A stretch of 64,000 nt of DNA, taken from sequence record OR983334.1, one strand, 5' to 3'. The notes beneath the pieces were generated by a model. It was not told the origin of the DNA, did not search any database, and worked only from the letters and a program-made list of their open reading frames with translations. A program made the position numbers and the translations under genes. Each line of letters begins with the position of its first letter. The first letter of the stretch is position 1. Below are positions 31,734 to 34,332 of this stretch, in pieces. This stretch comes from Escherichia phage 1-6bf.

Positions 31734-32174
31734 ATGGAGGTGGTATTGAAAATAGAGTTGGAATACCCCTTCATCAATGACTGGAGGTTGGGGTATTTAA
31801 GGACAAGTAAGGATGGGAGGAGGCGTGTTGACCTATTCAATTCTAACACAGATAGGACTACGATCTCTTATGCAAGGTATTTAATGTCTTGCCATGTAGG
31901 GAGGTATCTTACTGCGGAGGAAGAGGTAGATCATGTTGATCAAAATCCAACCAATGATGAGATATCTAACCTTCAGATTCTAAGCACAAATGATCACCTA
32001 AAGAAGACCTTAGAGAACAGACCTAAGGGTGTGGTCATTACTTTGATTTGTAGTAATTGTGGCACATCTTTTGAGAGAAGGGGTAACAAGGTCCACAAAG
32101 AAAACCAAAACCATTTTTGTAGTAGGTCTTGCAACGGTAAGTATTACTGGAGCAAGGGTTTCAATAATAAATAA
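31734..32174 (+). CDS. HNH homing endonuclease
   Basis: EVDHVDQNPTNDEISNLQILSTNDH HNH motif plus C-terminal Cys-rich zinc-binding segment. Confidence 0.7.
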   Translation: MEVVLKIELEYPFINDWRLGYLRTSKDGRRRVDLFNSNTDRTTISYARYLMSCHVGRYLTAEEEVDHVDQNPTNDEISNLQILSTNDHLKKTLENRPKGVVITLICSNCGTSFERRGNKVHKENQNHFCSRSCNGKYYWSKGFNNK

Positions 32175-32277
32175 GAGCTTCTAGCGAGGATGTATCTTCC
32201 CCGCCTTCTAAGCGGTCGTTAAAGAAGTAATTGGAGTATGCAGGTTCGAACCCTGTCATCCTCGCTAGAGGCTCTTG
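32172..32277 (+). ncRNA. tRNA-like structured element (about 20 bp outer stem, internal UCU-loop hairpin and T-arm-like hairpin)
   Basis: Outer stem AGAGCTTCTAGCGAGGATG / CATCCTCGCTAGAGGCTCT; inner CCGC-CTTCTAA-GCGG and GCAGG-TTCGAAC-CCTGT; no canonical D-arm. Confidence 0.3.
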
Positions 32278-33231: not shown

Positions 33232-33844
33232 GAGAATATTATGACTGAAGAATTTTTAAAGTGGTTTGGTGATACCTTCAAAGAGTATCTATTCTCTCCA
33301 GAAGACTTTGAAGAACTGAAAACCTACACTTGGTTGGCTTGGAGAGATAGCCGACGAGAGATGAATAAGTAATATCGTGAAGGATTCTTACGAGAGTCCT
33401 TTGAGATAGGACTTCAGATCTCCTATCAAACTAACATTCATGTAACTAGCCCATAAGGGCGTTACCCTTTAATAACCCAGCCCACTAAGGGGGCGGGAGT
33501 TTAGTGCTGGATTAGCATAACGCTTATTCCTACAAAGGCAACCGATTGTTAGATCTTACATGCAATACTAATTAATAGGATAAGGGAGGATTCGTCCCCT
33601 CCCCCTATTTATAAATTATCAGGAGAGTACTCTAGCTGATTAGCTGTAGAAGGGAGGCCGATATCTACGGCGTGGCCCAGAGCTAGTGTACTCTCCTGAT
33701 GAGGCACCTCCTCATCGTGGTAAGCTGTGGAATAATCTTTACAGCAGTTACTTGAAGTAGCCTGTACGGCCCTCAGCAAAGAGTCCGGACGATATCTGAG
33801 TGACTTTAAAAACAGATGGAGCCAGGTGGAATCCCTGGCAATTA

Positions 33845-33992
33845 GTTACAGGTATAGCTTATGAGGCTCACTAATGCAGAGCCTACGGTAAAGCAGTCGC
33901 CCGTGGTCAAATGACCGTATGCCCATTGGATGCATTCCTTTGGTGATGGCTAGGGAGTCCGAGCGTAGGTTCGAATCCTACACCTGTAACCA
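33845..33992 (+). ncRNA. tRNA-like element with canonical T-arm, acceptor 3' strand, discriminator and encoded CCA; 5' acceptor partner 139 nt upstream
   Basis: GTAGG-TTCGAAT-CCTAC then ACCTGTA-A-CCA at 33965-33992; complementary TACAGGT at 33847-33853; intervening region forms several hairpins but not a standard cloverleaf. Confidence 0.35.
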
Positions 33993-34020
33993 AATCGAAT
34001 AATATCTAATTGGAGGATGT

Positions 34021-34332
34021 ATGAAAGCACGAAGAACTATATGGACTCCGATGCAGATTGAAAATCTTCGGAGACTAATCAAAGAGTACTCGGTTAAAGA
34101 AGTTGCTCAGATTATGAATGTAACGGAGAATGCAGTTAATACAGCTTGCACTAAATTCGGAATATCAAGAGCTTCAATCCGAGTTAAATGGTCTGAAGAA
34201 GAAGACCAGTTCCTTATCCGTAATGCTGGGTTCATGTCTATTCAGAGAATGGCTGACATGCTCGGTAGAAGCTATGCTGCTGTACAGAACAGGGCATGTA
34301 TGCACCTTAATATTAGCCTCAAACTTAAATAG
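34021..34332 (+). CDS. Putative DNA-binding protein with two HTH-like repeats (103 aa)
   Basis: Two W..E..L.. helix-turn-helix-like units (TIWTPMQIENLRRL.. and VKWSEEEDQFLIRN..). Confidence 0.35.
   Translation: MKARRTIWTPMQIENLRRLIKEYSVKEVAQIMNVTENAVNTACTKFGISRASIRVKWSEEEDQFLIRNAGFMSIQRMADMLGRSYAAVQNRACMHLNISLKLK

Follow-up and report, generated by a model that had tools for sequence, protein, structure and literature searches.

What is a gene that closes like a transfer RNA (tRNA), with a T-arm, an acceptor strand, a discriminator A, and an encoded CCA, and that holds a large, hairpin-rich interior between the two strands of its acceptor stem? This question is raised by a locus on the plus strand of Escherichia phage 1-6bf (sequence record OR983334.1), in the stretch of 64,000 nucleotides (nt) that was analyzed here and that we call the window. 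A preliminary description, made from the letters of this DNA, considered that it could be a tRNA with an insertion, a tRNA-like regulatory RNA, or a tRNA-derived element. Our evidence agrees with a tRNA-derived RNA that carries insertions. As judged from the substitutions among its relatives, the element is shown to be a gene, kept by purifying selection, for a structured RNA with the shape of a tRNA and a CCA end, and we consider it probable that it is the gene for a tRNA-derived, non-decoding small RNA that is matured by tRNA-processing enzymes.

Selection on the RNA structure

The element exists in two forms, the long form found in the window and a short form of 125 nt that has the same ends (UUACNNGU ... 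ACNNGUAACCA) and the same type of T-arm. Over seven distinct variants, the 13 pairs of the acceptor/T minihelix were 98.9% paired, versus 33 to 46% in slid controls, and 5 of the 13 were altered on both sides, namely acceptor pairs 4:69, 5:68, and 6:67 and two pairs of the T-stem, which covaries with the short forms (GGAGG/CCUUC and GGGGG/CCCUC). The alignment of the long form alone comprises six variants, about 6% divergent, with 15 variable columns. Six of these columns make up three compensatory pairs, one in the acceptor stem (6:67), one in hairpin 1 (21:37, G:C to A:U), and one in the tip of hairpin 4 (85:91, where GGA/UCC becomes GGG/CCC in phage XT32); most of the others lie in loops or are wobble-compatible, as when A:U becomes G.U at columns 19:39 of hairpin 1 or U.G becomes U:A in hairpin 3 of phage HS106. 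The short form has the same structure-preserving pattern of substitution. By this comparison, selection is seen to act on the non-tRNA inserts too. The minimum free energy (MFE) z-score of the element is -2.4 to -2.9. On the opposite strand, the G.U pairs of the acceptor stem, T-stem, and hairpin 1 would turn into A.C mismatches, and the functional molecule is therefore the plus-strand RNA and not a DNA hairpin.

The features below were placed partly with the tRNA finder ARAGORN and partly with a covariance model, R1, which was built from the long form with the proposed cloverleaf, the structure being supplied by us.

33846-33992, plus strand: whole tRNA-like RNA gene, long form, from U-1 to CCA (147 nt)
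33847-33853, plus strand: acceptor stem 5' strand TACAGGT, partner of 33982-33988; pairs 4:69, 5:68, and 6:67 covary between long and short forms
33855-33861, plus strand: U8, A9, candidate D-stem 5' strand GCUU (33857-33860), and A14 (33861), all invariant, from the ARAGORN cloverleaf minus hairpin 1 and from model R1
33864-33884, plus strand: hairpin 1, AGGCUC / 9-nt loop A-N-UAAUGCA / GAGCCU, interpreted as inserted in the D-loop
33887-33894, plus strand: G18 G19 U20 A21 (33887-33890) and candidate D-stem 3' strand AAGC (33891-33894), from ARAGORN and model R1
33897-33901, plus strand: candidate anticodon-like stem, 5' strand UCGCC, invariant and predicted to pair with GGUGA at 33942-33946
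33902-33941, plus strand: 40-nt structured region in place of a 7-nt anticodon loop, containing hairpin 3 and the hairpin 4 tip
33903-33918, plus strand: hairpin 3, GTGGTC-AAAT-GACCGT, with 4 Watson-Crick and 2 G.U pairs
33928-33938, plus strand: hairpin 4 tip, within the 40-nt region
33942-33946, plus strand: candidate anticodon-like stem, 3' strand GGUGA, from ARAGORN and model R1
33947-33964, plus strand: 18-nt variable arm UGGCUAGGGAGUCCGAGC, aligned with AAGCUAUAGACUCCAACC of the short form; a small hairpin is predicted
33965-33981, plus strand: T-arm GUAGG-UUCGAAU-CCUAC (GTAGG 33965-33969, TTCGAAT 33970-33976, CCTAC 33977-33981)
33982-33992, plus strand: acceptor 3' strand ACCUGUA (33982-33988), discriminator A (33989), and CCA (33990-33992)

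The T-arm, acceptor strand, discriminator A, CCA, and upstream TACAGGT partner of the preliminary description are all present at the coordinates it gave, as are its two hairpins, AGGCTC-N9-GAGCCT and GTGGTC-AAAT-GACCGT. It had also claimed a 9-base-pair (bp) pairing of the two ends, of which eight pairs, the seven of the acceptor stem and U-1:A73, are conserved, while the ninth, G33845:C33990, is unique to this genome, the relatives having A where this genome has G33845. The string GGTTCGAATCC has a single exact site in the window and three sites with at most one mismatch, versus 0.71 expected; this count, the minihelix pairing, the compensatory pairs, and the MFE score together place the structure beyond chance. 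U1:A72, A2:U71, C3:G70, A73, and the CCA are constant throughout the long forms and in almost every short form. In the loop of hairpin 1 the heptamer UAAUGCA is invariant and the second base can be any of the four letters, and base 33886, just 5' of the GG, is C, U, or A among the variants, like tRNA position 17.

The AAUGCA of the hairpin 1 loop is complementary to UGCAU in the hairpin 4 loop. Because both loops contain the self-complementary core UGCA, a loop-loop contact between these hairpins would be possible, within or between molecules, and it may bear on the speculative decoy or scaffold roles discussed below.

Genomic setting and distribution

The window comes from a Kuravirus-type Escherichia coli podophage, and across positions 33300 to 34100 it is 99.9% identical to Escherichia phage 1-6af. 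The element occupies the 3' end of a 650-nt plus-strand stretch (33373-34020) that has no open reading frame (ORF) of at least 40 amino acids and is surrounded by a run of small plus-strand ORFs without known function; a gene for an HNH endonuclease lies 1.7 kb upstream. From the CCA to the next ATG are 28 nt, and the ORF that follows (34021-34332) is annotated as a D5-like transcriptional regulator. No sigma-70-type promoter and no terminator were found between the element and this ORF.

With the element alone as the BLAST query, 14 phage records matched. Twelve matches were full length, at about 94 to 100% identity, and belong to some 10 Kuraviruses and two N4-like Klebsiella phages; the other two are duplicate entries of phage KP8, matched at the T-arm end only, which has the short form. 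The two Klebsiella phages, GADU21 and HS106 (Efbeekayvirus), match exactly positions 33846 to 33995 at 93 to 94% identity, with unrelated flanks, and there the element stands in a tRNA array with terminators on both sides, in the order Asn, Asp, Pro, Tyr, element, Ser, Gln, Ser. It begins 2 nt past the CCA of tRNA-Tyr and ends 6 nt ahead of tRNA-Ser, which is normal tRNA spacing. Among the Kuraviruses, ES17, MN05, and SR02 are without 33701-34006, TH38 is without 33611-34000, and ShigP1 retains 33842-34100 without the upstream block. This patchy presence means that the element is dispensable. By comparison of genomes, the unrelated flanks and the Kuravirus indel map show the element to behave as an independent cassette, one that is likewise shown to have moved horizontally between unrelated phage families.

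The short form was found in 43 records of N4-like coliphages and Klebsiella phages (Gamaleyavirus, Kaypoctavirus) and in several metagenome contigs, so that 55 phage records hold one form or the other. In none of these records is either form annotated as an RNA, and a few show an overlapping hypothetical protein. A search of IMG/VR with interior 16- and 18-mers gave one additional long-form copy (L011), the other 17 matches being chance matches in coding DNA, and a pattern search for the 3' end in metagenomes and genomes gave more short forms and one long form. Several apparent relatives were discarded: tRNA-Gln(CUG) genes of Firmicutes with the same T-arm and a GTAACCA end are unrelated and were judged a coincidence, and "tRNAs" in contigs L057 and L058 that matched a D-arm string pattern are protein-coding sequence. 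An origin of the element in the host was also rejected: only the upstream block at 33782-33840 matched E. coli genomes, 14 of them, and the element itself matched none.

The cloverleaf and the question of decoding

How much of a tRNA is left in the interior? Set beside the canonical tRNA of family RF00005, and especially the class II tRNAs with a long variable arm, the element has the 7-bp acceptor stem (8 bp with U-1:A73), the discriminator, the 3' CCA, and a T-arm with a 5-bp stem, G53:C61, and U54 U55 C56 R57 A58. Only when hairpin 1 is taken as a D-loop insertion does it further show a candidate D-arm, with U8, A14, G18G19, A21, and a D-stem of 4 bp; a candidate anticodon-like stem of 5 bp and a variable arm of 18 nt complete the likeness. 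It differs in that insertion, a 21-nt hairpin in the D-loop, and in the 40 structured nucleotides that stand for the anticodon loop. These likenesses, together with the place of the element inside a real tRNA array in the Klebsiella phages, back the tRNA-derived option of the preliminary description.

Computational searches gave a mixed picture. The default run of ARAGORN, one of the checks proposed beforehand, returned 0 tRNA or transfer-messenger RNA (tmRNA) genes over the whole window. Rfam had no match on the element at E<=10, whether as a tRNA or as another known family, the sole match in the window being a marginal tRNA at 32186-32264, so that both standard routes miss the element, and the assignment to a different known RNA family that could have refuted the preliminary description did not arise. 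When hairpin 1 was removed, ARAGORN drew the proposed cloverleaf, with D-stem GCUU/AAGC and stem UCGCC/GGUGA, and in intron mode, another proposed check, it called the native element a tRNA and also reported tRNA-Arg(CCU) with a 33-nt intron. Because 7 to 8% of interior-shuffled controls, with acceptor and T-arm held fixed, were also called tRNA, the intron-mode call is weak evidence. An ARAGORN fold of the native element with D-stem AGCT/GGCT, anticodon stem TCACT/GGTGA, and a 62-nt intron was rejected, as it breaks hairpin 1, which covaries, and would pair column 26, which is hypervariable. Model R1 detected short forms at 20 to 28 bits and genuine phage tRNAs, tRNA-Pro of KP8 (24.3 bits) and tRNA-Thr of T4 (20.8 bits); the alignment to these tRNAs covers the D-arm (UAGCUnA...GGUAnAGCA), with UAGCUnA on 33855-33861, the anticodon stem, and the T-arm. 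As modeled, this suggests that the short form may share the blueprint of the long form, with a hairpin inserted in its D-arm, a stem ACCGC/GCGGU closing a 17-nt loop, and a similar 18-nt variable region.

A decoding tRNA has a 5-bp anticodon stem, a 7-nt loop, U33, and a free anticodon. In the element, UCGCC/GGUGA closes 40 nt instead, the sole anticodon-like triplet is CCU, and U33, C34, and C35 are paired in the covarying tip of hairpin 4; no anticodon-like loop is common to the long and short forms. With its sole triplet of this kind held in a hairpin that covaries, the element is not a decoder.

A probable non-decoding tRNA-derived RNA and its alternatives

In our preferred reading, a tRNA-derived RNA that does not decode, the element would be transcribed from the plus strand within a longer transcript, the tRNA operon in the Klebsiella phages and, in this window, an early-region transcript that continues into the next ORF. 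RNase P would cut 5' of U1, where U at -1 is conserved, and the 3' end would be trimmed to the encoded CCA. The product would fold on a tRNA frame made of the acceptor/T-arm minihelix and a D-arm that retains U8, A14, G18G19, and A21, so that an elbow could form, and this frame would bear the 21-nt D-loop hairpin, a 40-nt module of two hairpins in place of the anticodon loop, and the 18-nt variable arm. With no anticodon displayed, such a product could not decode. RNase P release, 3' trimming, elbow formation, and high stability are inferred by analogy with established tRNA biology. The result would be an abundant, nuclease-resistant look-alike of tRNA. More speculatively, the tRNA frame might be a scaffold that gives the inserted hairpins processing and stability, or the acceptor/CCA/elbow end might occupy a host factor that binds tRNA, as a decoy; a decoy is plausible because tRNA-cleaving defenses and phage tRNA countermeasures have recently been described (PMC10264068, PMC11555353, PMC12851939).

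A number of observations weigh against this reading. The D-stem and the anticodon-like stem are invariant and thus give no covariation signal. The MFE fold of the interior, at -49.3 kcal/mol, is more stable than the cloverleaf (-42.7 kcal/mol) or the best fold with the helices enforced (-47.0 kcal/mol), and, with its hairpin 2 and long hairpin 4, places the G residues of 33942-33946 in the base of hairpin 4; in the ensemble, the anticodon-like stem has a pair probability of 6 to 8% and the D-stem one of 20 to 35%. The shuffled controls called tRNA in ARAGORN intron mode count here as well, as does the fact that model R1 was fitted to our own structure. In the XT32 lineage the T-loop shows U55>C and the top pair of hairpin 1 is broken, and the element is missing from four of the six mapped Kuravirus relatives (ES17, MN05, SR02, and TH38). 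No computed result here points to a specific decoy partner. The XT32 copy lies at 1512-1658 of L004 and is the same in XT18 and XT73; it has U55>C, yet its change in the hairpin 4 tip is compensated.

Could the element instead be a decaying pseudogene, the functionless relic of a tRNA array acquired by recombination? Its patchy presence among Kuraviruses, its invisibility to default tRNA finders and Rfam, the XT32 changes just described, and its position in a cassette-mosaic region near an HNH endonuclease gene would all suit such a relic, which we nevertheless regard as unlikely. Six of the 15 variable long-form columns fall into three exact compensatory pairs, with most others in loops or wobble-compatible, and two of these pairs belong to the inserted hairpins, although a relic would have no reason to preserve such hairpins; 94% identity across two unrelated phage families despite unrelated flanks, an intact CCA, and tRNA-array spacing also speak against decay. 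A role in cis, in which RNase P would cut the polycistronic early mRNA at this tRNA-shaped site and so define where the mRNA for the regulator encoded at 34021-34332 starts, would draw on the short distance from the CCA to the next ATG, the lack of a detected promoter or terminator in between, and the regulatory annotation of the downstream gene. In GADU21 and HS106, however, the element lies between two tRNAs, where such punctuation is unneeded, and a minimal acceptor/T-arm would be enough for cutting, yet the 111-nt interior is conserved and covarying; we therefore give this explanation little credence. True decoding, as Arg-CCU or, if hairpin 1 were the anticodon arm, as Ile-AAU, with the insertions removed or tolerated, we hold to be highly improbable. 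The ARAGORN intron-mode call would favor it, as would the likeness of the hairpin 1 loop CUAAUGC to the anticodon loop CUAAUAA of tRNA-Ile(AAU) from N4-like phages, and Kuraviruses favor rare Arg codons and have tRNA-Arg(UCU) (PMC9965538). The CCU triplet is nevertheless paired in a covarying hairpin, the supposed intron lies between positions 32 and 33, position 32 in hairpin 1 is any of four bases in an arm with a 6-bp stem and a 9-nt loop, no comparable loop of the short form contains either triplet, and shuffled controls are called as well. We know of no mechanism by which bacteria remove a 33-nt tRNA intron, group I introns being far longer.

The tRNA-like domain might also belong to a mini-tmRNA without a tag, which would bind SmpB or the ribosome and either hinder or aid trans-translation. 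In many N4-like contigs the short form lies 5 to 8 nt downstream of a tmRNA-type RNA, here called the tag RNA, and ARAGORN at 80% thresholds gives a tmRNA call on the element, although those thresholds yield many spurious calls. The alanine identity pair G3:U70 is missing, 3:70 being C:G in all long forms and U3.G70 in phage Bp4, and none of the Rfam tmRNA models (RF00023, RF04321, and the clade models) matches. The four changes in the sole open frame (ARGQMTVCPLDAFLW*) are all nonsynonymous, and two of these form a compensatory hairpin pair, whereas the genuine tag RNA of relatives retains ANDDVVLMAA through synonymous changes. The element has a candidate D-stem, and tmRNA has none. Both the whole genome of GADU21 and this window have the long form and no tag RNA. 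A tag-less mini-tmRNA is thus very unlikely, and tmRNA identity was rejected because G3:U70, a coding-type tag, and a model match are all lacking. Two related ideas were also dropped: that the long form is the partner piece of a phage tag RNA, since that RNA is absent from GADU21 and this window, and that KP8 has a distal 5' acceptor strand, proposed by low-threshold ARAGORN, which has no equivalent in PhAPEC5 (sequences compared by reading).

A bolder extension of the non-decoding tRNA-derived reading is that the long and short forms make up a distinct class of phage "expanded tRNA" effectors, cassettes that would neutralize a host factor directed at tRNA by means of the acceptor/CCA/elbow end or of the inserted hairpins; we hold this class, and these parts within it, to be rather doubtful. 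A candidate target would be a defense enzyme that cleaves tRNA or modifies its end (PMC10264068, PMC11555353, PMC12851939), and in N4-like phages such effectors might work alongside the adjacent, unannotated tag RNA.

Comparison with known RNAs

The closest analogue is species 1 RNA of phage T4 (RNAC, gene rnaC), a small stable RNA of 139 nt at the end of a tRNA cluster. Like the element, it has a 7-bp acceptor-like stem and a T-arm (CCGGG-UUCGAAU-CCCGG) with about 100 nt of extra hairpins between them, and the element shares this architecture down to its place by a tRNA cluster, a context known from GADU21 and HS106. RNAC differs in having two U.U mismatches in the acceptor stem and no CCA encoded in the annotated gene, and T4 is a myovirus unrelated to the Kuraviruses and N4-like phages that carry the element. 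Model R1 did not match rnaC at E<=10, and because no sequence homology was detectable, the likeness is one of analogy and not of shown descent. No function has been assigned to RNAC to date (PMC9697503, PMC3014915).

The tRNA-like domain of tmRNA, including tag-less forms such as that of mycobacteriophage DS6A, with phage-encoded precedents (PMC11915505), likewise surrounds a large non-tRNA insert with an acceptor/T-arm and CCA, and the short form adjoins a tmRNA-type tag RNA; unlike tmRNA, the element has no G3:U70, no tag, and no model match, and it has a candidate D-stem. YrlA, the bacterial Y RNA-like RNA (RF02553), is also a noncoding RNA with a module that mimics tRNA. Its ends form a Ro-binding stem and not a free CCA end (PMC4201824), whereas those of the element form an acceptor stem with a free CCA, and its Rfam model gave no match on the element at E<=10. 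In the literature on tmRNA-like and tRNA-like RNAs in these phage groups, and on the tag peptides, we found no description of the element.

Neighboring and related RNA elements

A second tRNA-like element lies at 32172-32277 of the window (core 32186-32264). Its acceptor stem is 7 bp long, its anticodon loop reads CU-UCU-AA (Arg), and a T-arm and a variable region of 22 nt are present; the D-arm is all but missing, and there is no CCA. It scored 29.7 bits with the Rfam tRNA model (threshold 29), was not called by ARAGORN, and lies 12 nt past an ORF for an HNH endonuclease (31734-32174). The preliminary description had likened the two elements, which holds only in part. Both do have an acceptor stem and a T-arm, but this one displays an ordinary UCU anticodon loop, encodes no CCA, and continues for 12 bp past the acceptor stem (AGAGCUUCUAGC/GCUAGAGGCUCU). 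A single tRNA-Arg(TCT) has been reported in Kuraviruses (PMC9965538).

Several structured blocks precede the element. At 33584-33603 lies a terminator-like hairpin, GGGAGGAUUCGUCCCCUCCC, with a U-rich tail, of which a homologue is present in N4-like contigs. Just 3' of it, at 33611-33700, is a long hairpin (CAGGAGAGUAC ... GUACUCUCCUG) with a possible internal pseudoknot (CUGUAGA/UCUACGG and GGCC/GGCC), which in N4-like phages lies directly 5' of the tag RNA; its outer stem covaries there (GGGGAGUAC/GUACUCCCC; AAUGAGUAC/GUACUCUUU), and its interior is unrelated sequence in Bp4, L013, and L052 and about 92% identical in many Ackermannviridae. Directly 5' of the element, at 33783-33843, is a conserved block, AGUCCGGACGAUAUCUGAGUGACU..AAAAACAGAUGGAG-CCAGG-UGGAAUC-CCUGG, which in N4-like phages lies 5' of a different tRNA-like gene. 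It also occurs within a noncoding region of about 850 nt in 14 E. coli genomes, where its hairpin covaries (GCCGG...CCGGC). The single locus that was inspected is flanked by portal and terminase genes, so these copies are probably prophages.

The tag RNA, which lies outside the window, is an unannotated tmRNA-type RNA that matched 313 phage records, among them N4-like, Ackermannviridae, and P1-like phages and several Escherichia and Klebsiella phages of about 45 to 50 kb, such as C1. It was located at L003 1243-1412 (KP8), L006 ~1190-1400 (P1), L007 ~1196-1690 (C1), L008 ~1190-1370 (phiMAM1), L009 1277-1450 (PhAPEC5), and L010 1222-1400 (Bp4). Its sequence, ...ACAUAAAU GCA AAC GAN GAN ... CUG AUG GNN GCN UAA, specifies 10-amino-acid peptides, ANDDVVLMAA (in three synonymous DNA versions), ANDDLMMVAA, ANDNAYLMVA, and ANEEAYLMVA, with no in-frame AUG start codon nearby as seen by eye in C1, and the reading frame is followed by a hairpin and a pseudoknot-like motif. 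Rfam tmRNA models gave subthreshold scores of 17 to 33 bits, ARAGORN made no call by default, and we found no paper that mentions this RNA. Beside tag RNAs are odd "tRNA-Cys(ACA)" calls with poor anticodon stems (L010 1404-1482 in Bp4, L008 966-1057 in phiMAM1), and at 90% thresholds ARAGORN merges the one in Bp4 with the tag into a standard tmRNA (1188-1480); these calls may represent the tRNA-like domains that some tag RNAs otherwise lack. In metagenome contig L059 (~114-470), an ORF replaces the tag part, leaving the pseudoknot-like motif and the short form intact. By eye its product resembles a homing endonuclease, which, if correct, would fit such genes driving cassette shuffling.

N4-like phages also carry a 68-nt mini tRNA-like gene (L003 1687-1753, L009 1716-1783, L010 1546-1613), often immediately 5' of the short form and entered as "tRNA-OTHER" in the KP8 record, which has a UCCGGUG acceptor, a T-arm, A73, and CCA, with one short hairpin standing for the D and anticodon arms. 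Past the short form, on its downstream side, is a 17-bp hairpin (AAUUCAAAGUAGCACUG ... CAGUGCUACUUUGAAUU; L009 ~1911-2170, L043, L046, L052, and L057-L060) whose loop holds variable cargo, sometimes an insert that contains a T-arm. The next unit is an RNA of about 115 nt, in which two hairpins, GGGGUUCGAUUCCC and GGUGGUUCGAUUCCAUC, resemble T-arms. From its sequence, the N4-like region 3' of the short form reads as a series of aberrant tRNA-shaped cassettes.

Biological significance

The most interesting by-product of this work lies outside the window, in the widespread unannotated tmRNA-type tag RNA of enterobacterial phages. For annotation, the warning is that "no tRNA," as for this window, or "one tRNA," as in the Kuravirus literature (PMC9965538), undercounts the tRNA-shaped genes of these phages. 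Phage tRNA genes are now viewed as countermeasures to host defenses that destroy tRNA, and non-decoding tRNA look-alikes in phage tRNA arrays have been overlooked since T4 RNAC was sequenced in the 1970s. The element described here, in its forms of 147 and 125 nt, is a second well-delimited case. Since close relatives already do without it and it is dispensable, it offers a compact, genetically tractable system for asking what such RNAs do.

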